Shown piece after piece: positions 1,390-31,972 of a DNA stretch of 32,000 bases (position 1 is the first letter of the stretch; every line of letters starts with the position of its first letter). The notes under the pieces are model-generated. The model was not told the DNA's origin. It worked only from the letters and a program-made list of their open reading frames with translations, and did not search any database. Made by a program: the position numbers and the translations under genes. This DNA comes from an uncultured Planctomycetia bacterium (lineage in GTDB: Bacteria; Omnitrophota; Gorgyraeia; Duberdicusellales; 4484-171). Where the stretch lies: contig CAZHYN010000013.1 of assembly GCA_964536865.1 (NCBI GenBank), forward strand, positions 14,513 through 46,512. Reading direction: 5' to 3'.

Positions 1390-2109
1390 ATGAAGAGGAG
1401 AACTACTGATTGTTTTTATTTTGTTATTCGTAGGATTATTGAGTTTTTGGTCTTAGGGATGTTTCTTTTGTTGTTATTTGGAATTCTCTGTGAGAGAGGG
1501 GTGTACTGTAAAGAAGATAATGATAGCATGGCGATTGCTAATACCTACTACTTAAAAGGTAAAGAGTTTCTTCTTAAAGGAGAGTATCAGAAGGCTGACG
1601 AAGCTTTTAAGAAAGCGGAGAAGATTTTAAATAAAAAATCTTCTAAAAAAAAGGAAAGGCTCTCTCTAAGAAAGTCGGATTCCAAAAGAAGGAAGATTTC
1701 TTCTAAGATATCACCCTCTAATTTAGAGGCAGAGAGAAGGAAGATAGAGACTATTCTGGAGGCAGCAAAACAAGCTTACTTTGAAGGGAATTTAGAGTTA
1801 GCTTTAAGGCTGTATACCAGAGTGTTAAGAAAGTATCCTACCGATGCTGATCTTTACTACAATTTAGGAGTTATTTATCTAAAAAAAGCGGATTACCTTA
1901 GTGCTGCTGAGGAATTTAAAAGAGCAATTCTTTTAGATCCTAGCGATGCTGATGCTTACTATAATTTAGGAGTGATCTATGAGAATTTTCTCAATGATAA
2001 GGAAAAGGCTATTAGTCACTACCAGAGTTATTTGAAATTGTGCACTTCTGAAGAAGAAAAGAGGGAGATTAAAAGATGGATAGAGAGGCTTAGAAGGGAA
2101 GGACGATGA
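1390..2109 (+). CDS. TPR repeat protein with N-terminal hydrophobic segment
   Basis: 239-aa ORF. Repeated TPR signatures (ADLYYNLGVIYLKKADYLSAAEEFKRAILLDPSDADAYYNLGVIYE), an N-terminal TM/signal-like segment and an ATGA overlap with pilB. Confidence 0.7.
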   Translation: MKRRTTDCFYFVIRRIIEFLVLGMFLLLLFGILCERGVYCKEDNDSMAIANTYYLKGKEFLLKGEYQKADEAFKKAEKILNKKSSKKKERLSLRKSDSKRRKISSKISPSNLEAERRKIETILEAAKQAYFEGNLELALRLYTRVLRKYPTDADLYYNLGVIYLKKADYLSAAEEFKRAILLDPSDADAYYNLGVIYENFLNDKEKAISHYQSYLKLCTSEEEKREIKRWIERLRREGR

Positions 2110-3923
2110 ATGACGAGGAGTTAAAAGATATTCTTTTGCAAGCGAATTTACTCACTCCTCAGGATATTGAGAGGGCAATTGAGGAGACTAAAAAGCTTAA
2201 GCGCCCTCTAGAACAGGTAATTTTGGATATGCGCCTTTTAGACAGAGAAGTTCTTTACAGAACCATAGCTCAAAAACTAGAAGTAGAGTATAAAAAAATA
2301 GATAATTTAACTGTTCCTAAAGAGCTGTTAAGAATATATCCTGAAGATTTAGCCCGTTCTACTAAGTCTGTACCTTTGTTTATAAAAGAAGGGACTCTTC
2401 ATGTTGCTTTAGCTAATCCACAAGATTTTACTTTAACTGATCAGATTCAGTTATTTACCAACTATCCTCTCTTTGTGTATCTCTCTTCCCCTCAGGAGAT
2501 TGAAGAAGCTATTAACCGTATTTATCGTGAAGAGAAAGAGGAGATACTTTTTACTGATTTAGAAACACCTCCTACGGTGAGCCCTAAAAAAGAAGAGGAG
2601 AGTAAGCCTTTAAGTGAGACTACCTCTATCATAAAGGTGGTAGATTTACTTATCACTCAAGCAGTAAGAGACAGAGCTAGTGATATTCATATTGAGCCAG
2701 AGGAAAGTGTTACTAGGATAAGATTTAGAATAGATGGAATTCTTCACGAAGTACCTCCTCCTCCTAAAGAGTGGGAATCAGCTATAATTTCTCGGATAAA
2801 AGTCTTAGCAGGGATGGATATTGCAGAGTCCCGTTCTCCTCAGGATGGTCATTTTCAGGCCACTATAGATGATAAACTTATTGATTTCCGTGTTTCTACC
2901 TTACCTACTATCCATGGGGAAAATGTAGTATTAAGGCTGTTGGATACTGCTTCCGTAGCTATAGGTTTGGAAAAGTTAGGGTTTACCACCCCTCAAGACT
3001 TAAAGAAGTATGAAGAGCTAATTACCAAACCTTATGGAATAATTCTTTCTACAGGTCCTACAGGATGTGGTAAGACTACCACTTTATACTCTGCTTTAAT
3101 GAGAATAAATACCATGGATAAAAATATTATTACTTTAGAAGATCCTGTGGAGTATCGTTTAGGTTTAATAAGGCAGGTTCAGGTTAATCCTAAAGCAGGA
3201 ATTACCTTTGCTAATGGTTTGAGAGCAATCCTTCGTCAGGACCCCGATGTAATAATGGTAGGAGAGATAAGAGATTTAGAGACTGCACGAATGGCTGTTC
3301 AAGCAGCGTTAACAGGACATCTAGTATTTTCTACCCTTCATACTAACGATGCTCCCAGTGCAGTCGCTCGCCTGATAGATATGGGAGTAGAGGACTTTTT
3401 GGTTGCTGCGTCTTTAATAGGAGTTATGGCTCAGAGACTGGTGAGGGTTATCTGTCTTAAGTGCAAAGAAGCGTATAAACCCTCACCTACCATACTTAAG
3501 AAGTGGCGGATAGAAAAAGAAGATGTGGAAGTTTACCGAGCTGAAGGGTGTCCGGAGTGCAAAGGAACTGGTTACCGAGGTAGAACAGGAATATTTGAAC
3601 TAATGGTGGTTGATGATGAAATAAAAGAGATGATTAATCAGGGAGCTTCCACAGTAGCTTTAAGAAAAAAAGCTCAAGAGAAAGGAATGCGTCTTCTTTG
3701 GGAAGATGGGAGAGAAAAAGTTTTGAGAGGGATCACTACCTTTGAGGAAGTAGCTAGGGTTTGTGAGGAACAAATCGAAGTTAAACCTGCAAAGATAGAA
3801 GTAAAGCCTTACTTAGGAAAAGAAATAGAAGTAAAAAGAGCTACTGTTAGAGAGGTGAAAATTGACCCTAAGGCTTTAGAAGAGTACCGTGCCCGTATTG
3901 CTCGCTGGATGAAGAATGAGTAA
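2106..3923 (+). CDS. pilB: type IV pilus assembly / T2SS ATPase (GspE/PilB family)
   Basis: 605 aa. N-terminal T2SSE_N-type domain, Walker A GPTGCGKTT, Asp box VGEIRD, His box TGHLVFSTLHTN and tetracysteine CLKC...CPEC. Followed by pilC. Carries a 53-aa C-terminal tail beyond the usual family end. Confidence 0.9.
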   Translation: MNDEELKDILLQANLLTPQDIERAIEETKKLKRPLEQVILDMRLLDREVLYRTIAQKLEVEYKKIDNLTVPKELLRIYPEDLARSTKSVPLFIKEGTLHVALANPQDFTLTDQIQLFTNYPLFVYLSSPQEIEEAINRIYREEKEEILFTDLETPPTVSPKKEEESKPLSETTSIIKVVDLLITQAVRDRASDIHIEPEESVTRIRFRIDGILHEVPPPPKEWESAIISRIKVLAGMDIAESRSPQDGHFQATIDDKLIDFRVSTLPTIHGENVVLRLLDTASVAIGLEKLGFTTPQDLKKYEELITKPYGIILSTGPTGCGKTTTLYSALMRINTMDKNIITLEDPVEYRLGLIRQVQVNPKAGITFANGLRAILRQDPDVIMVGEIRDLETARMAVQAALTGHLVFSTLHTNDAPSAVARLIDMGVEDFLVAASLIGVMAQRLVRVICLKCKEAYKPSPTILKKWRIEKEDVEVYRAEGCPECKGTGYRGRTGIFELMVVDDEIKEMINQGASTVALRKKAQEKGMRLLWEDGREKVLRGITTFEEVARVCEEQIEVKPAKIEVKPYLGKEIEVKRATVREVKIDPKALEEYRARIARWMKNE

Positions 3924-3948
3924 AGTTAACTTTTTGTTAGTTTAAGCT

Positions 3949-5211
3949 ATGGGTATCTATATCTATAAAGCAGTTGATGCCAAAGGTAAGATAGTAAAGG
4001 GAAAGATCGAAGCACCTACAGAGACTGATGTTTCTATCCAATTAGCTAAGCTAGGGTATATTCCTATAAGTATAGGATTTAAGGGAGAAAAAGCTCCTCC
4101 TTTAAGAGAACGGTTATTTAAAAAAAGATTTCGTAGAACTTCTTCTCATGCTTTAGTAGTATTTACTCGGCAATTTGCTACTATGGTGAAGGCAGCGGTT
4201 CCCATTGTTGAGGGGTTAAAGGTACTGGCTGAGCAAGCCGAGGATGATAATTTAAAAGAAGCTCTTTTCAGAGTAATTGAAGATATAGAGGAGGGAAAGA
4301 AGCTATCCGAAGCCTTAACAAAACATCCCGGAGTATTTAGCCAGCTCTACGTTAATACTGTGGTAGCAGGGGAGGTAGGAGGAGTGTTAGATAAAGTTCT
4401 TTTAAGGTTAGCAAATGTTTTAGAGGAAGAACAAGAGATAAAAATGAATATGAAATCTGCACTAAGATACCCTATAATAGTAATGGTAGCTCTCATTATT
4501 GCTGTAATTATTCTCTCTGTAAGAGTGGTACCTACTTTTGCTAAAGTTTATTCTAGGATGAATATAAGCTTACCTCTTCCTACTCGGATAATGATTCTTA
4601 TGAGTAATTTTTTTCTCGGCCCCTGGAGAGACAGTTCTAACTTTTTGTTAAAAATTCTATGGTTTATGATTCTTCTTGGTATAGCTGTAGGGGCATTTTT
4701 ATCTTTTAAATTATTCATAACTACTCCTGGAGGAAGACGTTGGTGGGATAATGCTAAATTTAGAATGTATATATTTGGGAAAATCTATAAAAAAATAACT
4801 ATGCTTAGGTTTGCTTCAATGCTCAATGTGCTTTATCAGGCAGGACTTCCCATTCTTAATATTCTGGATGTTGTAAAAATCACTATTGGGAACGTGGTGT
4901 TAGCTAAAGAGTTGGATAATGTAAAAAGGTTTGTAGCTGATGGTAAAGGAATTTCTGGAGGTCTTTTAGGTAGCAAATTATTTCCCCCACTAGTTTCTTA
5001 TATGGTCTCTGTAGGAGAAAAGGCAGGGGCATTATCTACTATGCTTGATTCTCTATGTGAGTACTATTCCTTAGAAGTAAGAACTTCTCTAAAAAACTTA
5101 ACCTCTTTGATTGAGCCTATTATGACTTTAGTTTTAGGGGTAGTGATAGGAGGAATGGCTTTAGCGATATTCCTGCCTATGTGGAATTTGATTTCTATTA
5201 TCCGAAGATAA
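3949..5211 (+). CDS. pilC: type IV pilus / T2SS inner-membrane platform protein (GspF/PilC family)
   Basis: 420 aa with two T2SSF-like halves, hydrophobic segments in the expected positions and a typical C-terminal end (GMALAIFLPMWNLISII). Adjacent to pilB. Confidence 0.9.
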   Translation: MGIYIYKAVDAKGKIVKGKIEAPTETDVSIQLAKLGYIPISIGFKGEKAPPLRERLFKKRFRRTSSHALVVFTRQFATMVKAAVPIVEGLKVLAEQAEDDNLKEALFRVIEDIEEGKKLSEALTKHPGVFSQLYVNTVVAGEVGGVLDKVLLRLANVLEEEQEIKMNMKSALRYPIIVMVALIIAVIILSVRVVPTFAKVYSRMNISLPLPTRIMILMSNFFLGPWRDSSNFLLKILWFMILLGIAVGAFLSFKLFITTPGGRRWWDNAKFRMYIFGKIYKKITMLRFASMLNVLYQAGLPILNILDVVKITIGNVVLAKELDNVKRFVADGKGISGGLLGSKLFPPLVSYMVSVGEKAGALSTMLDSLCEYYSLEVRTSLKNLTSLIEPIMTLVLGVVIGGMALAIFLPMWNLISIIRR

Positions 5212-6021
5212 GTGATTTTTGGTTTTTTAATAGGAATAGTTATTCTAATAATTTATATTATTATCTCTTCCTGGTGGTGGAGAAGAAAATTACATTTTTA
5301 TGTTAAAAAATCTCGAGAAGAGGAAGCTAGACTCATTCATCTAGAGAAAATGGCCTCTTTAGGAACTTTAGCTGCTGGAGTAGCTCATGAGATTAATAAT
5401 CCTTTGACCTTTCTTCTTACTAATCTAGGACTCCTTTCTCACTATATAAAAGAGGAGAAGAGAGTCAAAGAAGAGTTACAAAAAGAAATAAGTGTAATTT
5501 TAGATGAGTGTAACGAAGGAGTGAATAGAATAAAGAGGATTGTTCAAGATCTGCTTTCTTTTTCTCACCGCTCACGAGGTAAAAAAGTTTCTACAAACAT
5601 CAATGAGTTGCTGGATGTAAGTATAAGAATTCTATGGAATGAGATAAAGTATAAGGTTGATATAGTAAAAAATTATGAAGCAGTAACTCCTCTTCGGATA
5701 GATCCTAATCAACTAAGTCAAGTATTTTTAAATATAATCATCAACGCTACTCATGCAGTAAAGAATAAAGGGACAATTTTTCTTTCTACCCAAGAGAATG
5801 AGAAGGAATTTATCATTAAGGTTTCTGATACAGGAGAAGGAATTCCTAAAGAAGTTCTTCCCAAGATTTTTGAACCTTTCTTTACTACTAAGGGAGGTAC
5901 GGGTTTAGGACTCTATGTAAGCAAAAATATTGTGGAGAATATGGGGGGTAGGATAGAAGTAGAAACTCAATTGGGAGAGGGTAGTACATTCACTATTTTT
6001 CTGCCTAAAGTTAAAAAATAA
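5212..6021 (+). CDS. sensor histidine kinase (one TM helix, no obvious sensor domain)
   Basis: H-box AHEINNPL, N-box NIIINATHA, G1 DTGEGI and G2 GGTGLGL. GTG start directly abuts the pilC stop codon. Confidence 0.85.
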   Translation: MIFGFLIGIVILIIYIIISSWWWRRKLHFYVKKSREEEARLIHLEKMASLGTLAAGVAHEINNPLTFLLTNLGLLSHYIKEEKRVKEELQKEISVILDECNEGVNRIKRIVQDLLSFSHRSRGKKVSTNINELLDVSIRILWNEIKYKVDIVKNYEAVTPLRIDPNQLSQVFLNIIINATHAVKNKGTIFLSTQENEKEFIIKVSDTGEGIPKEVLPKIFEPFFTTKGGTGLGLYVSKNIVENMGGRIEVETQLGEGSTFTIFLPKVKK

Positions 6022-6042
6022 TTTCTTTAAGAGAAAAGTGCT

Positions 6043-6396
6043 ATGGGAGTAGAGAAAAGAAAGTATCCTAGGGTTAAGGTTAAGTTTTCCGTAGAGTATA
6101 GGGGGAAGAATGTTTGGCAAAACGCTGAGATTGACAATATCTCCAGAGGGGGGATGTTTATTGTTACGGAGAAGATAGAGCCACCAGGAACAAATATAGA
6201 GCTTATTTTTGAACTAGGAGAAAGTAAGAGGAAGATCCAAGCTCAAGGAGTAGTGGTGTGGACACGTACTCAATCTCAGCACAATCATGAAGGTAGGCTT
6301 CTCCCTCAGGGTATGGGAGTCCAATTCACCAAAATTTTCCCTGGAGAAGCAGAAAATTTTTTGGCTGATTTAATAGAGAAGTGGAGAGATGGATAA
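6043..6396 (+). CDS. PilZ domain protein (c-di-GMP receptor type)
   Basis: 117 aa with both canonical PilZ motifs: RKYPR (RxxxR) and NISRGG ((D/N)xSxxG). Confidence 0.85.
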   Translation: MGVEKRKYPRVKVKFSVEYRGKNVWQNAEIDNISRGGMFIVTEKIEPPGTNIELIFELGESKRKIQAQGVVVWTRTQSQHNHEGRLLPQGMGVQFTKIFPGEAENFLADLIEKWRDG

Positions 6397-6961
6397 ACAT
6401 ACTATTCTCGTTGTAGATGATGAGCCTAATATAGTTTCTTCCCTAAAGAGGGTTCTTGCCTCCGAGGATAGAGAGATTTTATCTGCCTATAGTGCTGAAG
6501 AGGCTTGGAGGCTTCTTCAAGAGAAGGGAGAAGTAGAGGTAATTATTTGTGATAATAAATTACCGGGAGCCTCTGGCGTAGAATTCCTTTCCAAAGTAAA
6601 AACTGCTCATCCCCACACAGTAAGAATTCTTATTACTGGTTATCCTGATTTGACCAGTGTTGCAGAGGCAATAGATAAGGCAGGCATCTGGCGGTACCTC
6701 TTAAAGCCTGTAGAGATAGAGGAGTTAAAAACTTTAGTAAACCAGGCTTTTGGTTACTATAGGATTTTAAAAGAAAATCAAATTCTTTTTGATATCGTTT
6801 GTCAACAAGCGGAGTGGCTTAAGGTATTAAGAGAAAAGTATCCTGAGATTGTGTCCCGGGAAGTAGAAGAAGGGAAGATAATTGATATAGAATGGAGAGA
6901 AGCTTCTGACACAGTTAGAAAATTCATAGAAAAGTACTACCTTCACAAAAAAGGAGAATGA
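6389..6961 (+). CDS. response regulator, receiver domain plus short C-terminal extension without a recognisable output domain
   Basis: VVDDEPN acidic pocket, phospho-acceptor context IICDNKLPG, ILITG and LLKP. The C-terminal region of about 70 aa is unassigned. 8-nt overlap with the PilZ gene. Confidence 0.85.
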   Translation: MDKHTILVVDDEPNIVSSLKRVLASEDREILSAYSAEEAWRLLQEKGEVEVIICDNKLPGASGVEFLSKVKTAHPHTVRILITGYPDLTSVAEAIDKAGIWRYLLKPVEIEELKTLVNQAFGYYRILKENQILFDIVCQQAEWLKVLREKYPEIVSREVEEGKIIDIEWREASDTVRKFIEKYYLHKKGE

Positions 6962-7770
6962 AAGAGTTAGAAAAAAGATTGGTAAAAGAAGGATGGGTTA
7001 CCTCTGCTCAACTTATAAAAGCTAAGGAAGAGCAGAAGAAAAAAAAGAAGAAATCCTTATTCTCTGTTTTAGTAACTTTGGGATATCTAAGTGAAGAGGA
7101 TATTTACCTATTCTTTGCTCAGAGTGCTCAGATACCTTTTGTAAGGCCAGGCGATTATCTTTCAGATGAAGAACTTTTTAATCTTTTTTCCGAAGACTTC
7201 TATCGGGAGCATCTTTTTGTTCCTCTCTTTAGAATAGGAAATACTCTTTACATTGGGACTGCTAATCCCCTGGATACAGAGTTTATGGATACCTTAAGGA
7301 AGCATACTAATTTAGATATCTTTCCTCTATTTGCCTCTCCTTCTTCTATCTTAGAGGCAATAAATCGTGTATTTGGGCCAGAGAAAGTATACTTACAGTT
7401 AGAGGAGTTAGTTAGTTTCTCTCCTTCATTAAGTATACTACCCTTAGGAAGAGAATCTGAAAGGATAGTGATAAATACACCTGTAGAGTTTAAAGTTATT
7501 GACAAGAGGATAACTTTAGCATCTTCTCAATATCTAAAGGGAACTGCTTTGAATATTTCTCAAAGTGGTAAGGGGGTAGGGATAAGGACTTTTCTTTTTC
7601 TTCCTTCTGGAGCAAAGATTCTTCTAAAGTTTCCTTCATTCGATCCTAATTGTGAATTAGAAGCAGAGATAACCCACTGCAGAATGGAACAAGGTTATTA
7701 TTTCTTAGGAGTGAAATTTCTCCAAACAAGAAAAGATTTATTAAGATATTTATTGGAAGAAAAAAAATAA
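6958..7770 (+). CDS. T2SSE_N (GspE/MshE N-terminal-like) domain fused to a C-terminal PilZ domain
   Basis: The N-terminal ~140 aa resemble the pilB N-domain (LGYLSEEDIYLFFAQSAQIPFV...LYIGTANPLD...ILEAINRVFG). The C-terminal half has RESER (RxxxR) and NISQSG (NxSxxG). ATGA overlap with the response regulator. Confidence 0.75.
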   Translation: MKELEKRLVKEGWVTSAQLIKAKEEQKKKKKKSLFSVLVTLGYLSEEDIYLFFAQSAQIPFVRPGDYLSDEELFNLFSEDFYREHLFVPLFRIGNTLYIGTANPLDTEFMDTLRKHTNLDIFPLFASPSSILEAINRVFGPEKVYLQLEELVSFSPSLSILPLGRESERIVINTPVEFKVIDKRITLASSQYLKGTALNISQSGKGVGIRTFLFLPSGAKILLKFPSFDPNCELEAEITHCRMEQGYYFLGVKFLQTRKDLLRYLLEEKK

Positions 7771-7812
7771 TTTTCATAACTCTCTGATATTAAAGAGATA
7801 ATGAAAGCGGAG

Positions 7813-7842
7813 TTGACAGAGCAGAATTTTATATGTTATACT
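7813..7842 (+). promoter_or_regulatory. candidate sigma70-type promoter for the riboswitch transcript
   Basis: TTGACA (7813-7818), 18-nt spacer, TATACT (7837-7842), about 40 nt upstream of the aptamer closing helix. Confidence 0.4.
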
Positions 7843-7882
7843 TAAATTGAAGCTCTTTATATTAAGGATTTATACTTTTATT

Positions 7883-8068
7883 ATACTACTCGACAAAGGC
7901 AAACTCGTGGTAACACGAGGGCGCAAAGCCGTGCGTCCCGCTCTTTCTAAGACCCAGATTAACAGGGGTTTGAAGTTAAAGTGCATAAGGGATGCAGAGG
8001 CAGGTAAACTGCAGGATTTAACTAGAAATATGAAAAGGGCGGGATAGGCAGGTTGCCGAAAGTAGTAT
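7883..8068 (+). promoter_or_regulatory. c-di-GMP-I (GEMM-I)-like riboswitch aptamer with an enlarged second arm
   Basis: 7895-7930 reads AAAGGCAAAC-UCGUG-GUAA-CACGA-GGGCGCAAAGCC, the GEMM-I core with a GNRA-capped hairpin. 8041-8059 reads GGGAUAGGCAGGUUGCCGA, which matches the 3' junction of known GEMM-I RNAs. An 8-bp closing helix joins 7883-7890 and 8061-8068. Confidence 0.7.
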
Positions 8069-8081
8069 TTATTTTTTATTT

Positions 8082-8125
8082 AAGCCGAACTACTTTAGCC
8101 TTTAGGAGAGTAGTTCGGCTTTTTT
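8082..8125 (+). terminator. rho-independent terminator (riboswitch expression platform)
   Basis: Perfect 13-bp stem AAGCCGAACUACU (8082-8094) / AGUAGUUCGGCUU (8109-8121), extendable by 2 bp. It runs straight into UUUUUUGUU. Confidence 0.8.
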
Positions 8126-8146
8126 GTTCTCCGAGAGATAAAAAAC

Positions 8147-8175
8147 TTGACTTACTCTTAAAAAGCTGATATTCT
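8147..8175 (+). promoter_or_regulatory. possible second promoter directly upstream of the pilin gene
   Basis: TTGACT (8147-8152), 17-nt spacer, TATTCT (8170-8175). The -10 element is weak. Confidence 0.3.
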
Positions 8176-8199
8176 TAATAAAGAAAGGAGGTGAGTAAG

Positions 8200-8559
8200 A
8201 TGCGCAGAGGTTTTACTCTTATTGAATTAATTATGATTATCGTTATCATTGGTATTTTAGCAGCTATTGCTATCCCTAAATTTATTGACTTAAGAACTGA
8301 TGCCCAAAAGGCTTCTTGTTTTGGTAGTGCTGCAGCAATTCAAACTGCTCTTTCTAACTATTATGCCCGCCAGGCTATAAAAGGAAGCCCTGGTTTTCCT
8401 AGCACCTTACATGATACATCCTTTACTAGTGAGTATTTCACTGAAGCTACTCTTCCTGATCATCCCAAAGGATGGGATTGGGATACCTATTATAGCAGTA
8501 ATACCGGGGCTCTTCATACTGGTAAAGGGGCAGATAGCGGAGCCTGTACAAACTTTTAA
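8200..8559 (+). CDS. type IV pilin / pseudopilin with prepilin N-terminal cleavage-methylation motif
   Basis: MRRG/FTLIELIMIIVIIGILAAIAIPKF class-III signal with Glu at +5. GGAGG (8187-8191) lies 8 nt before the ATG at 8200, so I prefer 8200 to the GTG at 8191 in the ORF track. Confidence 0.9.
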   Translation: MRRGFTLIELIMIIVIIGILAAIAIPKFIDLRTDAQKASCFGSAAAIQTALSNYYARQAIKGSPGFPSTLHDTSFTSEYFTEATLPDHPKGWDWDTYYSSNTGALHTGKGADSGACTNF

Positions 8560-8580: not shown

Positions 8581-8612
8581 ATAAACCCCGCTTTTTTAAA
8601 AGCGGGGTTTAT
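8581..8612. terminator. bidirectional intrinsic terminator between convergent genes
   Basis: AUAAACCCCGC (8581-8591) / GCGGGGUUUAU (8602-8612) with T-rich and A-rich flanks. It overlaps the last codons of the minus-strand GT-C gene. Confidence 0.75.
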
Positions 8613-10488
8613 TATTTTTATCTCTAAGAATAAGCTTACTTAAGGAGAGGGCAGGCCTAAATTGAGGGTTAAGACTAATTGTTTTTTCTAGCTCCTTTAA
8701 AAAGAGTGGATTCTTCAATTTCATATAAACCAATGCCAGAGCATAATGAGAATAATACCAGTCAGGTTTAATTTCTATAGATTTCTGGTAAAGCTGTTGG
8801 GCTTTGTGTAAATCTCCCTTTTTCTCATAAATTTTTCCCCATAGAAAGTAAGAGTAGAATTCAAAAGGGTTTATTTCTATAGCTTTTTTTATATATCTTT
8901 CTGCCATAGTTAGCTTATTTTCCTCTATATAGATTCGTGCTAACGCTTGGTAAGCTCGTTCACTGTAAGGATTTAATTTTAGAGCTTTGTTTAAATAATA
9001 AAGAGCCTTCTCTTTATCGTTCTTTTTTTCGTAAAGAGTGGCTAAGTTAGTATAGATCTGATATACTCTTGCTTGGTTAGGTTCTAGTTTTAAAGCTTCA
9101 CTTAAATATTTTATTGCCTCATCATATTTTCCTTCCATGAAGTAAGTACCTGCTAAATTAACATATATTCCCGCCTTCCAATCTATATCTTTGGTAGAGA
9201 TAGTCAGAGCCTTAAAAAATATTTTCCTTGCCTTTTTTAAATACCCCTTCTCTTTATAACTTACCCCTAAATTTAGCCAGTTTCCTATATGTTGGGGCTC
9301 TTTTTCTGTGCCTTTTCTCCACACTAAGGTAGGATAGTTAAGTTGACAATTTCTTTCCACAGTGAATATAGATAGAATGAAGATTACTCCTAATGCAGGA
9401 TACAAAAAGTATCTTTTGTTTTTTATATAAAAATTTTTAAAAACCTCCATCAGAATTATGTATATACCTATACTGGGAAGATAAAAGTGGTGTTCCATAG
9501 CAGGTACTTTTAAGGTCGCATAAAACTTCGGAAGAAGCATTAAGAGATACCAAAAAACCCCTAAACTTAAAAGATATATTCTTTTTCTTAAGAGTAGAAG
9601 AGTAAATACAAGAATAATTATTCCCATCAAAGGAAAAAAACCTTGAGGTTGAAGAATAGAATTTAGCTGAGGGTAATAATGCAGGAAATTAAGATTATCG
9701 GGAAATAAAAATAATCTCAGATAGAAAAAGCTTACCCAACTTTGAATAAGAATATTAGAAAGCGGACTCCTTAATCCTCCAGGAGTAATTCCCTTAAAGA
9801 AGGCTTTTTTGTAAAGAAAATAGAGGAGAGAAATAGTGATGAGAGAAAATAAAAGAAAAATATTCTTCTTCTCTTTAAAAGTGAATTTAAGACTCCTATA
9901 TTGATAAAGAAGGTAGTGGCCTCCTATCAAAAGCGGAAAACATAGCCCTGTTTCCTTAGTTAGCAGAGAAAATACATACAGTAAACAACTTAAAGCATAT
10001 CTTTTCTTTAAATAAAGTAAGAATCCCCCCAAAATAAAAAAAGTTACCATCAAATCCGACCTACTAGATATGTAACTGACCGCTTCGGTATTTATAGGGT
10101 GAACTAAAAACAAAAGGATTATAAGAAAGGCTAAGGTTTTGGGGGTATCTTTTTTTAGAGAAGTTAATAAAAAGTAGAGAAGAGTAGCATTTAAGAAGTG
10201 AAGAAGAACATTTATGATGCGGTACCCCACAGGGTTAAGACCTCCACCCCAATAATTAAAAGCAAAACTAAGCATAAGAAGAGGTCTACACATTCCTTTG
10301 GGGATGGGGTAGCTGGTAACATATCCTTTAAAAAACAGAGGGAAGTATTTTGGATTTTTTATGAAAGTATTTTCTTCTATCATATAGTAGTCATCGAAGA
10401 TAAAGGGAGCATTAAGAGCACTGCTATAGGTAAGAAGAGAGATAACTACTAAAGAAAGTATTACAAGATAATCAATTTTACTTTTCAC
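8596..10488 (-). CDS. GT-C fold glycosyltransferase, TMTC/PMT_2-like multi-pass membrane domain plus C-terminal TPR domain (paralog A)
   Basis: 630 aa. N-terminal loop motif PFIFDDYYMI (the FxFDD acidic motif of PMT/TMTC-type GT-C enzymes), about 10 hydrophobic helices, then about 230 aa of TPR repeats. 11-nt overlap with the upstream paralog. Confidence 0.8.
   Translation of the reverse strand: MKSKIDYLVILSLVVISLLTYSSALNAPFIFDDYYMIEENTFIKNPKYFPLFFKGYVTSYPIPKGMCRPLLMLSFAFNYWGGGLNPVGYRIINVLLHFLNATLLYFLLTSLKKDTPKTLAFLIILLFLVHPINTEAVSYISSRSDLMVTFFILGGFLLYLKKRYALSCLLYVFSLLTKETGLCFPLLIGGHYLLYQYRSLKFTFKEKKNIFLLFSLITISLLYFLYKKAFFKGITPGGLRSPLSNILIQSWVSFFYLRLFLFPDNLNFLHYYPQLNSILQPQGFFPLMGIIILVFTLLLLRKRIYLLSLGVFWYLLMLLPKFYATLKVPAMEHHFYLPSIGIYIILMEVFKNFYIKNKRYFLYPALGVIFILSIFTVERNCQLNYPTLVWRKGTEKEPQHIGNWLNLGVSYKEKGYLKKARKIFFKALTISTKDIDWKAGIYVNLAGTYFMEGKYDEAIKYLSEALKLEPNQARVYQIYTNLATLYEKKNDKEKALYYLNKALKLNPYSERAYQALARIYIEENKLTMAERYIKKAIEINPFEFYSYFLWGKIYEKKGDLHKAQQLYQKSIEIKPDWYYSHYALALVYMKLKNPLFLKELEKTISLNPQFRPALSLSKLILRDKNNKPRF
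9925..10365. repeat. 441-bp direct repeat, copy 1 (inside paralog A)
   Basis: Base-by-base comparison with 11900-12340 (offset 1975) shows no mismatch. Flanks diverge immediately (9924 c vs 11899 a; 10366 a vs 12341 g). Confidence 0.95.
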
Positions 10489-12457
10489 TTTTTCTGAGGT
10501 TATCCTCTATTATCTTCAGAAATTCGTTATCTACTCTAAACCCTAAAGATTTAGCAATCAAAGCATACTTTCTTGCCAAATCCCATCGGGGAGGAATTAA
10601 AGAAGCATAAACTACAGCTAAGTCATTATAAGCAGGGGCAAAACTAGGGTCAATGCTAATTACTTTTTTAAATTCGGAGAGTGCTCTGCCATCTCCTATT
10701 CTTGCATAAAGAGTACCTAAATAGTAATGAGAATTCCGATGCTTGGGATTAAAGTATATTGATTTTTTGTACATCTCTATTGCTTTTTTATAGTTGTTTT
10801 TCTCTTGAAAGATTTGTGCTAAACCATAATAGCCTCCATAGTAAGTAGGATTTATCTGAATTGCTTTTTTAAACATTTCTTTTGCTTTAAAAAGATTTCC
10901 TTCCTTAAGGTAAAAGAAGGCTAAGTTACATCCAGCTTCCACAGAGGCAGGGTAGAGCTGTAGTTCTCTAAGCCAGGCTTCCTCAGCCTTCTTTTTCTTA
11001 CCCATTTTTGAATAAATGATCCCTAATAAATTATAACTACCCATAGGCGGAATTTTCACTGATTTGGTAGCATCGTTTATTAACTTTAACGCTTTTTCGT
11101 ATTTTCTCTGTTTTATGTAGATGTGCGCTAAATTGCCTCTAGCATTAACTATACTCTCTATCCTATCTGCAGTATTTATTGCTTTTATAAATTCTTTTTC
11201 TGCTTGGAATGTGGCTCCCATCTTTAGATACACCAGTCCTAACTGATTAAGAATGGTTGCTGATTTAGGGTTTCTCTGTGCAGAGATTTTCCAGAAAACT
11301 AAGGGATTTCTGTATTCATAGCTTCTAATTAGAGTAAAAGATGCCAAGATAGAGATAATTCCTATAACGAAATAGGTAAAGTACTTGGTATACTTTAGAT
11401 AGATTCTTCTTAAGATACTTATCAAAACTATATAGATGCCTATACTAGAAAGATAAAAATGGTGCTCCATAGCAGGGAAGCTAAGCCGGGCATAAAATTT
11501 GGGAAGCAAACCTATAAGCAGCCAGCTTAATCCGATACTTATTAAGAAGTTCTTCTTAATAAAGAGGAGAGCTAAGATAATTAAACCTACTATTCCTAAG
11601 GTTGAGAATAATACAGGGAAATGAAAAAGAGAACCAAACTCCGGAAGATAGTGAATGATATTTAAGGAATGAGGGAGAACGAGTAATTTAAAGTAAAGAA
11701 GAGTTACTACCGACTGAAGAAGAATGTTTTGGTAGTAAGAACGAGGTATCCTTGCAGGAGTGGAGGAAAAGACCTTCGATTTATAGATGAGATACAGTAA
11801 AGTAATTAAAACTATTCCTATGTAGACAAACTTTCTTTTCCCTATATCTTTTTTAGAAAGAGGATAGTCTTTTATAAAGTAGATAAACTCATAGCTTAAT
11901 ATCAAAAGCGGAAAACATAGCCCTGTTTCCTTAGTTAGCAGAGAAAATACATACAGTAAACAACTTAAAGCATATCTTTTCTTTAAATAAAGTAAGAATC
12001 CCCCCAAAATAAAAAAAGTTACCATCAAATCCGACCTACTAGATATGTAACTGACCGCTTCGGTATTTATAGGGTGAACTAAAAACAAAAGGATTATAAG
12101 AAAGGCTAAGGTTTTGGGGGTATCTTTTTTTAGAGAAGTTAATAAAAAGTAGAGAAGAGTAGCATTTAAGAAGTGAAGAAGAACATTTATGATGCGGTAC
12201 CCCACAGGGTTAAGACCTCCACCCCAATAATTAAAAGCAAAACTAAGCATAAGAAGAGGTCTACACATTCCTTTGGGGATGGGGTAGCTGGTAACATATC
12301 CTTTAAAAAACAGAGGGAAGTATTTTGGATTTTTTATGAAGGTGTTATTTACAATCATATGGTTGTCATCAAATAGGAAAGATCCATTTAAGGAAGGTAG
12401 GTATATAAGAAAAGATAGACTTGCAAAAATAATTATAAAGATTTTCTCTATTTTCAT
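10478..12457 (-). CDS. GT-C fold glycosyltransferase, TMTC/PMT_2-like membrane domain plus C-terminal TPR domain (paralog B)
   Basis: 659 aa with motif SFLFDDNHMI and the same architecture as paralog A. Residues ~40-186 are identical to paralog A and the rest is clearly diverged. Confidence 0.8.
   Translation of the reverse strand: MKIEKIFIIIFASLSFLIYLPSLNGSFLFDDNHMIVNNTFIKNPKYFPLFFKGYVTSYPIPKGMCRPLLMLSFAFNYWGGGLNPVGYRIINVLLHFLNATLLYFLLTSLKKDTPKTLAFLIILLFLVHPINTEAVSYISSRSDLMVTFFILGGFLLYLKKRYALSCLLYVFSLLTKETGLCFPLLILSYEFIYFIKDYPLSKKDIGKRKFVYIGIVLITLLYLIYKSKVFSSTPARIPRSYYQNILLQSVVTLLYFKLLVLPHSLNIIHYLPEFGSLFHFPVLFSTLGIVGLIILALLFIKKNFLISIGLSWLLIGLLPKFYARLSFPAMEHHFYLSSIGIYIVLISILRRIYLKYTKYFTYFVIGIISILASFTLIRSYEYRNPLVFWKISAQRNPKSATILNQLGLVYLKMGATFQAEKEFIKAINTADRIESIVNARGNLAHIYIKQRKYEKALKLINDATKSVKIPPMGSYNLLGIIYSKMGKKKKAEEAWLRELQLYPASVEAGCNLAFFYLKEGNLFKAKEMFKKAIQINPTYYGGYYGLAQIFQEKNNYKKAIEMYKKSIYFNPKHRNSHYYLGTLYARIGDGRALSEFKKVISIDPSFAPAYNDLAVVYASLIPPRWDLARKYALIAKSLGFRVDNEFLKIIEDNLRKSEK
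11900..12340. repeat. 441-bp direct repeat, copy 2 (inside paralog B)
   Basis: Identical to 9925-10365. Confidence 0.95.
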
Positions 12458-17891: not shown

Positions 17892-17968
17892 CGGGGCGTA
17901 GCTCAGGTGGTTTTAAGAGCACTTGGTTCGGGACCAAGAGGTCAGCAGTTCAAATCTGCTCGCCCCGA
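17892..17968 (+). tRNA. tRNA-Pro (CGG)
   Basis: Acceptor CGGGGCG/CGCCCCG, anticodon arm CTTGG-TTCGGGA-CCAAG and T-arm AGCAG-TTCAAAT-CTGCT. CCA is not encoded. Confidence 0.9.
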
Positions 17969-18133: not shown

Positions 18134-18495
18134 GGGGGTGAAAGGGCCTCGACTCAATAAGCAGGGAAGGAGTTGCATGCCAGCGGGTAGACCAGCTGTT
18201 TAAGAGGTCTACACCAAATAAAGGCAACAAGCTATGCCTCTACTCCTGCTTACGCAGTTTGTTAAGCAGGGCTCTTAATCCTGTTTGTCTCTGACGGGAT
18301 TAAGGGTTCGGTAAGAGAGACTAGAGGTAGATTCTTAACCTTGGGGATTTACCTCGAAAAATCAACAAGGTTGCTTTCTAACAGATCCTGTCTCTCGGAG
18401 CTGTTAGAGAAAAGATCAAAAGAGAGACTAAGCATGTAGTAGGCTCCTCTTTTAGCTTATTGAGGACGCGGGTTCGATTCCCGCCACCTCCACCA
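18134..18495 (+). ncRNA. ssrA: tmRNA (transfer-messenger RNA)
   Basis: The 5' GGGGGUG pairs with the 3' CACCUCC-ACCA, giving a G3:U wobble (Ala identity). T-arm GGACGCGGGUUCGAUUCCCGCC, conserved ACUAAGCAUGUAG, encoded CCA. Likely tag frame GCA 18224 to UAA 18263-18265, with the stop inside hairpin CUGCUUA/UAAGCAG. Confidence 0.9.
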
Positions 18496-31217: not shown

Positions 31218-31289
31218 GCCCAGGTAGCTCAACGGTAGAGCAGGGGTTTTGTAAACCTCAGGTTGGAGGTTCGAATCCTCTCCTGGGCT
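31218..31289 (+). tRNA. tRNA-Thr (UGU)
   Basis: Acceptor GCCCAGG/CCTGGGC, anticodon arm GGGGT-TTTGTAA-ACCTC and T-arm GGAGG-TTCGAAT-CCTCT. CCA is not encoded. Confidence 0.9.
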
Positions 31290-31391: not shown

Positions 31392-31474
31392 GGGCAGGTT
31401 CCCGAGTGGACAAAGGGGGCAGACTGTAAATCTGCTGCGCTTGCGCTTCGGAGGTTCGAATCCTCCCCTGCCCA
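31392..31474 (+). tRNA. tRNA-Tyr (GUA), long variable arm
   Basis: Acceptor GGGCAGG/CCTGCCC, anticodon arm GCAGA-CTGTAAA-TCTGC, variable stem GCGC-TT-GCGC and T-arm GGAGG-TTCGAAT-CCTCC. CCA is not encoded. Confidence 0.9.
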
Positions 31475-31901: not shown

Positions 31902-31972
31902 GCGGGCGTAGTTCAGTGGTAGAACGCAAGCTTCCCAAGCTTGTCATGGCGGTTCGATTCCGCTCGCCCGCT
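31902..31972 (+). tRNA. tRNA-Gly (CCC)
   Basis: Acceptor GCGGGCG/CGCCCGC, anticodon arm CAAGC-TTCCCAA-GCTTG and T-arm GGCGG-TTCGATT-CCGCT. Discriminator U. CCA is not encoded. Confidence 0.9.

Follow-up and report, generated by a model that had tools for sequence, protein, structure and literature searches.

A class I c-di-GMP riboswitch aptamer in the leader of an MshA-like type IV pilin gene from a Candidatus Omnitrophota bacterium

The pilin leader and its features

The stretch of DNA analysed here (the window) comprises 32,000 nucleotides (nt) of contig CAZHYN010000013.1, from a Candidatus Omnitrophota bacterium, and hosts a type IV pilus locus. Pfam assigns an MshEN-type ATPase, a T2SSF platform protein and PilZ and MshEN-PilZ proteins to its upstream side and a pilin to its downstream side. 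An initial annotation, made by reading the letters of the window, had placed a pilin gene here, which the N_methyl family bears out, and had counted three PilZ domains nearby, whereas the Pfam count for the upstream genes is two PilZ and two MshEN domains. Between the two sides, at 7883-8068 of the + strand, lies a complete and genuine class I cyclic di-GMP (c-di-GMP; GEMM-I) riboswitch aptamer with the canonical three-helix architecture, situated in the leader of an MshA-like type IV pilin gene. It is an ordinary further member of a well-known family, detectable by Rfam at the gathering threshold; a literature search for Omnitrophota returned no report of a c-di-GMP-I riboswitch in this group. 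What sets it apart is a peripheral loop enlarged by a lineage-specific insertion of some 90 bases, and the presence downstream of a terminator and of another conserved promoter.

The features of the leader are collected in Table 1. Coordinates are window positions on the + strand unless stated otherwise, L001 to L042 denote the related loci compared, and ligand-contact equivalents carry the numbering of the Vc2 riboswitch, assigned by alignment to the RF01051 and RF03167 covariance models (CMs).

Table 1. Features of the riboswitch, its expression platform and the pilin gene (MFE, minimum free energy).
Feature	Position	Strand	Remarks and basis
Predicted riboswitch promoter, TTGACA-18 nt-TATACT with TG	7813-7842	+	11/12 consensus match; predicted start ~7849
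P1, 5' strand, AUACUACUCG	7883-7892	+	Pairs with 8057-8068 or, alternatively, with the terminator 3' strand at 8108-8114; MFE folds, duplex energies
Junction ACAAAG	7893-7898	+	G7898 is the equivalent of Vc2 G20, a ligand contact; CM alignments
First hairpin (P1a; P2 of Vc2)	7899-7924	+	CM alignment, covariation
A7925, equivalent of Vc2 A47	7925	+	First A after CGC; the RF03167 consensus has G here; consensus-line comparison
Second hairpin (P1b; P3 of Vc2)	7927-8054	+	CM alignment, folds, covariation at two pairs
Lineage-specific insertion, P1b apex	7942-8038	+	~97 nt; RF03167 insert state, comparison with L001, fold
G8055, C8056 (C92 equivalent) and P1 3' strand	8055-8068	+	CM alignment, folds
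Intrinsic terminator	8082-8125	+	15-bp stem 8082-8096/8107-8121, loop 8097-8106, U-tract 8120-8125; MFE fold
Second promoter-like element, TTGACT-17 nt-TATTCT, extended -10 TG	8147-8175	+	Promoter scan; between terminator and pilin gene
Pilin ribosome-binding site, AAAGGAGGUGA	8184-8194	+	Invariant in four lineages
MshA-like type IV pilin gene, MRRGFTLIELI...	8200-8559	+	Pfam N_methyl; homologues named MSHA pilin MshA by JGI
Hairpin terminator after the pilin gene	8581-8612	+	Shared with the convergent TPR gene; terminator scan

Aptamer architecture and diagnostic residues

The sequences on which the initial annotation had built its GEMM-I proposal are read directly in the window: the core at 7895-7930 is AAAGGCAAAC-UCGUG-GUAA-CACGA-GGGCGCAAAGCC and the 3' junction at 8041-8059 is GGGAUAGGCAGGUUGCCGA. 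A scan of the whole 32-kb window at Rfam gathering thresholds confirms the identity, with a match to RF01051 at 7888-7966 scoring 37.1 bits against a gathering value of 35. The alignment behind this score is convincing in its 5' half only, namely the junction, the first hairpin and CGCAAAGCC; the 3' half is spurious, taken from 7950-7966, because an insertion interrupts the second hairpin. When 7800-8200 is scanned at higher sensitivity, RF03167 (c-di-GMP-I-GGC), a model of the same clan, aligns all of its 80 model positions to 7889-8061 with 58.7 bits (E 1.8e-13), 0.3 bits under its gathering value of 59, and places a 96-nt insert state in the loop that caps the second hairpin. The locus is thereby an annotation pitfall: Rfam at the gathering threshold reports 7888-7966, with a wrong 3' boundary, and the true full-length match falls below threshold because of the insertion. 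By energy alone the 186-nt element folds into the aptamer architecture, at -64.2 kcal/mol and z = -5.4 with respect to shuffled sequences.

In the first hairpin, G7899 pairs with C7924 and C7900 with G7923, followed by a 6-bp stem (7904-7909/7914-7919) capped by the GUAA tetraloop at 7910-7913. The second hairpin is built from 7927-7930/8051-8054, 7932-7934/8048-8050 and 7935-7946/8034-8045, with A8046-G8047 bulged. The 8-bp helix 7883-7890/8061-8068, which the initial annotation had seen as closing the element, is present in the sequence and recovered in the MFE folds; the P1 3' strand starts with C8057-G8058 and, after a bulge at A8059-A8060, continues as AGUAGUAU at 8061-8068. The GUAA tetraloop is invariant across the five lineages considered below, and tandem C-G pairs are conserved in P1b. 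From what is generally known of GNRA docking, the tetraloop may dock on these tandem pairs and not on an 11-nt receptor.

The ligand-contact nucleotides of the class, G20, A47 and C92 (PMC4744006; their roles are also described in PMC11218506), have their equivalents in G7898, A7925 and C8056; A47 intercalates between the two guanines. G7898 is unpaired and precedes the paired G7899-C7900. The residue identities named earlier stand, but two of the assignments were off by one, since the G20 equivalent is G7898 and the A47 equivalent is A7925, and not the central A of GCAAAGC. The universally conserved interhelical Watson-Crick pair C44-G83 (PMC4744006) is also accounted for: in the RF03167 alignment both positions are filled, by C7922 and G8047.

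Conservation and covariation among related loci

Only 16 homologues of the MshEN-PilZ protein encoded just upstream (gene 6958-7770) occur in the protein collection, and the related loci were fetched through their alignment. They are Candidatus Omnitrophota metagenome-assembled genomes, a few of them labelled Planctomycetia. Rfam scans and a covariance model of our own (R1) detected the same riboswitch in four further lineages, represented by L001 (= L012 = L030), L020, L003 and L042 (= L041), which together with the window make five. The L001 group is the closest, with a flanking protein 89-90% identical to that of the window. Orthologues that lack the insertion score 68, 65.7 and 59.0 bits with RF03167.

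In every riboswitch lineage the next gene encodes a homologous MshA-like type IV pilin that starts with M(L/F)R(R/K)..GFTLIELIMVIVIIGILAAIAIP. In L003 the MshEN-PilZ gene is 1.9 kb distant from the module, which nevertheless stands directly upstream of the pilin; therefore, the linkage is of the riboswitch to the pilin. Other lineages, whose pilins are 71-75% identical, have no riboswitch, and their pilin gene follows the upstream gene after 40-65 nt.

The covariation analysis of homologous loci that the initial annotation had pointed to supports the helices. Across the five lineages, 94% of the cells for the 30 proposed pairs are standard pairs, as against 28-46% in a slid control with the 3' partners moved by 1-3 columns. 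Seven of the 30 pairs (13 cells) have changed on both sides, and none of 500 shuffles reaches the covariation score. Covariation was also computed on a four-sequence MAFFT alignment. Compensatory double changes are found at four of the six pairs of the first-hairpin stem. The core of P1 (CUAC/GUAG plus CG/CG) is invariant in the five lineages, although P1a covaries freely. Between the window and L001/L030 the aptamer core is identical except at G8055, which is A in L001, while the flanks diverge.

A divergent GEMM-I-like element is also found at 3973-4125 of L002 (= L013), on the 3' side of the MshEN-PilZ orthologue. Conserved in it are ACGGCAAAC...GUAA...GCAAAG...UUGCCAAA, but about 66 nt with two additional hairpins separate the first hairpin from GCAAAG, and it scores only 26.6 bits with RF03167 and 17.3 bits with R1. 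It is followed by a terminator and then by an alanine/glutamine-rich repeat protein with a signal peptide, not by a pilin.

Expression platform and predicted polarity

The -35 and -10 hexamers of the promoter upstream of the aptamer are conserved in the window, L001, L020 and L003; for L042 the promoter scan called none upstream, and a TTGACT...TATATC motif is discerned by eye only. On the other side of the aptamer, an intrinsic terminator begins fourteen nucleotides past P1, with a local fold of -23.9 kcal/mol and a run of six U after the stem. The stem and the U-run are kept, with substitutions, in all five lineages. A simple terminator scan missed it, because its loop of 10 nt exceeds the limit of 8 nt.

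The strands of this terminator repeat those of P1, with ACUACU at 7885-7890 and again at 8089-8094, and AGUAGU at 8061-8066 and again at 8109-8114; therefore, the two helices may swap partners. The invariance of the P1 core is as expected if P1 must match the terminator strands. Two alternative helices result, 8059-8066:8089-8096 (8 bp) and 7885-7891:8108-8114 (7 bp), and a third is formed in the window and L001 by 7895-7900:8098-8103, where AAAGGC, including the G20 equivalent, pairs with GCCUUU of the terminator loop. Folds were computed for growing transcripts with 3' ends at 8106-8116: there the swapped (antiterminator) state outcompetes every P1 fold by 3.2-6.7 kcal/mol, and in the corresponding snapshots of L001, L020 and L003 it is favoured by 2.5-10.3 kcal/mol. 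Once the terminator is complete, the MFE structure is P1 plus terminator. The duplex of the aptamer 5' segment with the terminator loop and 3' strand is predicted at -20.3, -20.3, -9.1/-11.4, -8.8 and -11.9 kcal/mol in the five lineages. The two marks of a terminating riboswitch, i.e. an alternative that is mutually exclusive with aptamer P1 and a terminator downstream, are thus both predicted by the folding calculations.

Qualitatively, in this model the P1 strands would, with no ligand bound, exchange their partners for the terminator strands through the three alternative helices, and this swapped state would block the terminator and allow read-through into the pilin gene. Binding of c-di-GMP would lock P1, so that the terminator would form and an RNA of ~275 nt would be released. 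The polarity suggested by the energies is thus c-di-GMP OFF, which we favour over ON with modest confidence; class I switches in Clostridioides difficile, uniformly terminator-based OFF switches, provide the precedent (PMC6366702).

In L020 the terminator 3' strand and its U-run occur twice, at 2264 and 2343, some 80 nt apart (GAGGAGUUCGGUCUUUUUUU and GAGUAGUUCGGUUUUUUUUU). Of the two, the second copy is the better partner for the 5' strand, and the arrangement could be a tandem or alternative terminator (cf. the dual terminator of Bc1) or a duplication.

The second promoter and the fate of the transcript

Between the terminator and the pilin gene, the second promoter-like element is also found in L003, L020 and L042 and is conserved across all five lineages; its -35, TG and -10 are invariant in the alignment, although protein identity for the adjacent gene is about 50%. 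The pilin is thus probably served by this riboswitch-independent promoter as well as by read-through from the upstream one. Since the second promoter stands between switch and pilin, the riboswitch would modulate the share of the upstream promoter only, and a bypass of this kind, as in the tfoY leader of Vibrio cholerae, leaves room for the terminated riboswitch RNA to have a role of its own.

This raises the leading alternative, which accepts the aptamer but takes a terminated RNA that stands on its own to be the principal product, acting as a c-di-GMP-responsive small RNA or as a ligand sponge in the manner reported for the sRNAs of V. cholerae that end in Vc2, while the pilin is driven essentially by the second promoter. 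The strong terminator immediately 3' of the aptamer and the second promoter, placed as it is in all five lineages, speak in its favor, as does V. cholerae, where most Vc2-containing transcripts stop short of tfoY and downstream promoters yield Vc2-independent tfoY mRNA (bioRxiv 10.1101/617340). However, the module always accompanies the pilin gene, as control in cis predicts, a termination switch acting in cis requires just the strand-swap complementarity that aptamer and terminator show, and no trans target is known. We regard a stand-alone RNA as unlikely.

Ligand and class membership

That the ligand is c-di-GMP, and not cyclic GMP-AMP (cGAMP), was the view of the initial annotation. The covariance models, the identities of G7898, A7925 and C8056, the covariation among orthologues and the gene context support it, and we infer c-di-GMP as the ligand on these grounds. 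Two other memberships were considered and rejected. The conserved cores of the RF03167 and RF01051 consensus sequences differ at one position, CGCGAAgCc versus CGCAAAgCc, which corresponds to A47. The variant class described by RF03167 reportedly stems from the 2017 survey of variant riboswitches by the Breaker laboratory, and its name, GGC, we take to stand for G20/G47/C92, judging by the Rfam consensus lines. An A occupies this position in the window (A7925, within CGCAAAGCC) and in all five lineages, so the G that would define the variant is absent, and filing under GGC was discarded. Filing under the cGAMP-sensing variants (GEMM-Ib) was discarded as well, since position 20 is G (G7898), and not the A that typifies those variants (PMC9481103, PMC7266159).

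An element of the GGC or GEMM-Ib kind, with a ligand other than c-di-GMP, is on this basis improbable. What it has on its side is that RF03167 is the best-scoring Rfam model in the window and in all orthologues, three of whose four scores reach the gathering value. This lead, however, probably reflects the inclusion of P1 in RF03167 and its tolerance of the insertion, where RF01051 goes wrong in the 3' half: the 37.1 bits of RF01051 belong to the mis-aligned solution, and its score on the correct alignment is hidden by clan competition.

The insertion in the second hairpin

With respect to L001/L030, the apex of P1b, which there reads GAUAUUAUAUC, is replaced in the window by ~100 nt (7941-8040), which lengthens the hairpin by 90 nt net; the insertion is absent throughout the closest relatives (L001/L012/L030). 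It continues the P1b helix, with 12 perfect pairs (7935-7946/8034-8045), and then branches into several hairpins, and folded alone it reaches -35.1 kcal/mol (z = -3.9). A test for a mobile repeat found no further copies in the window or in the 30 loci L001-L030, a comparison with the PLSDB plasmids gave no match, and the sensitive Rfam scan of 7800-8200 showed no second known RNA within it, only noise (Termite-leu at 13 bits, Lysine at 9.5 bits). Among independent Logan contigs of the same organism, one ends at 7924 and another restarts at 8031. Logan contig L028 contains the last 10 nt of the insertion; therefore, the 3' junction is real. The breaks beside the insertion hint at coexisting alleles with and without it, or at low coverage.

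Being peripheral, at a hairpin apex away from the ligand pocket, the insertion probably has no effect on ligand binding, as far as the predicted structure tells. The Vc2 crystal construct is said to have had its P3 apex replaced by a U1A-binding loop, consistent with an apex that tolerates foreign sequence. The insertion might instead have a function, for example as a second sensor or as a platform that binds protein or RNA. Independently of this or along with it, the conserved unit of promoter, aptamer and terminator, with a separate promoter for the pilin, might yield a stand-alone c-di-GMP-responsive small RNA in Omnitrophota in place of a simple cis switch. We consider these ideas distinctly unlikely.

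Another proposal, a decaying or inactive riboswitch that the insertion of ~90 nt has broken and the second promoter bypasses, draws on the absence of the insertion from the closest relative, on the hint of heterogeneity given by the Logan breaks, and on the reported functional silence of a class I switch, Bc1 (PMC11218506). Yet the aptamer core equals that of L001 except at position 8055, the insertion continues P1b with 12 perfect pairs and sits at the hairpin apex, distant from the ligand pocket, and promoter, terminator and strand-swap motifs are all intact. Decay is thus very improbable, slightly more so than the variant-class reading above.

Finally, a 66-aa open reading frame (ORF) overlaps the aptamer at 7847-8047, and the notion that the region encodes this protein and resembles the RNA only incidentally can be set aside: the frame is open with a TTG start, but it has no ribosome-binding site before the TTG, no Pfam family match and no called gene with the same product on record, a 1-nt indel in L001 shifts it into stops, 30 of its codons are the lineage-specific insertion, and the stem substitutions are paired and non-synonymous (VVTR versus TVMW). 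The conserved stretch of the peptide (LLDKGKL..GRK) coincides with the invariant aptamer core. As the initial annotation had held, the ORF, judged by these comparisons, is not a gene.

Weight of the combined reading

Taken whole, i.e. a c-di-GMP aptamer, a terminator-based OFF switch and a bypass promoter, the reading presented here has in our estimate a probability of about 70%. Several points weigh against it. The duplex between the 3' strand of P1 and the 5' strand of the terminator is good in three lineages and weak in L003 (-2.8 kcal/mol) and L042 (-2.6 kcal/mol). The full-length MFE structure holds both P1 and the terminator even when free of ligand, so that the antiterminator would be only a kinetic intermediate, and the energy model ignores tertiary structure and ligand. 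What identifies the two promoters is their match to the consensus, and the top Rfam score comes from the variant-class model, RF03167. With regard to polarity, the pilin pilA1 of C. difficile is governed by a class II ON switch, the opposite of OFF on a pilin, and the same review cautions that polarity is not to be extrapolated across species (PMC6366702).

With this element, a pilus locus already equipped with protein receptors for c-di-GMP (MshEN, PilZ) gains a receptor for it at the RNA level. Omnitrophota are uncultured and poorly understood, and the locus offers a testable handle on the regulation of their surface pili. Aptamers bearing insertions are easily mis-annotated, as seen here from the wrong RF01051 boundaries and from a full-length match 0.3 bits too low. 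The window and L001 form a natural, near-identical aptamer pair with and without the ~90-nt insertion, which would be informative on the tolerance of the P3 apex.

Gene neighbourhood

The pilus module upstream of the leader (2106-7770) is rich in c-di-GMP receptors, a setting typical of GEMM riboswitches, and encodes a T2SSE ATPase with MshEN, a T2SSF protein, a histidine kinase, a stand-alone PilZ protein, a response regulator and the MshEN-PilZ fusion. The response regulator carries a C-terminus of 70 aa without family assignment. In L035, L037, L040 and L042 a single conserved ORF of 66-67 aa replaces the kinase-PilZ-regulator trio. On the - strand, the genes at 8596-12457 run towards the pilin gene and encode two large TPR paralogues (630 and 659 aa), and a TPR protein is likewise found downstream of the pilin in L033, L035 and L037. 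Elsewhere the window contains a tmRNA (RF00023, 167.8 bits) and four tRNA genes (18134-18495, 17892-17968, 31218-31289, 31392-31474 and 31902-31972).

Comparison with known systems

With RF01051 and Vc2 the element shares the three-helix aptamer, the core of GGCAAAC, GNRA hairpin and CGCAAAGCC, the equivalents of G20, A47 and C92, the C44-G83 pair and the association with pilus or motility genes. It differs in the branched insertion of ~97 nt at the apex of the second hairpin, in a GUAA tetraloop where Vc2 has GAAA, and in its host phylum, Omnitrophota. RF03167 is the best-scoring model, aligned in full including P1, with three of the four orthologue scores at or above gathering; the difference is the A47 position, where the window and its orthologues have A and not G.

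Class I switches in C. difficile, such as the one preceding flgB (Cd1), likewise place an intrinsic terminator after the aptamer, and the ligand-induced termination described for them (PMC6366702) is what is predicted here. They control flagellar and other genes, whereas the pilin pilA1 is left in that species to its class II ON switch (PMC6366702). Bc1 of Bacillus thuringiensis, a class I switch with a long platform and dual terminators (PMC11218506), resembles the present case in its long leader and in having one or more terminators before the gene, and the duplicated terminator 3' strand of L020 is a Bc1-like feature. For Bc1, opposing effects on transcription and translation and a weak response in vivo are described (PMC11218506).

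A leader of similar layout is Vc2-tfoY of V. cholerae, a class I OFF switch whose aptamer is transcribed from upstream promoters, with bypass promoters P3 and P4 and abundant short aptamer RNAs (bioRxiv 10.1101/617340). Here, too, an upstream promoter predicted to include the aptamer is accompanied by a second one that would bypass it. Vc2 showed no termination mechanism in vitro (bioRxiv 10.1101/617340), whereas the aptamer in the window is succeeded by a canonical terminator. Insertion, bypass promoter and strand-swap platform deserve mention, and each has a precedent in kind.

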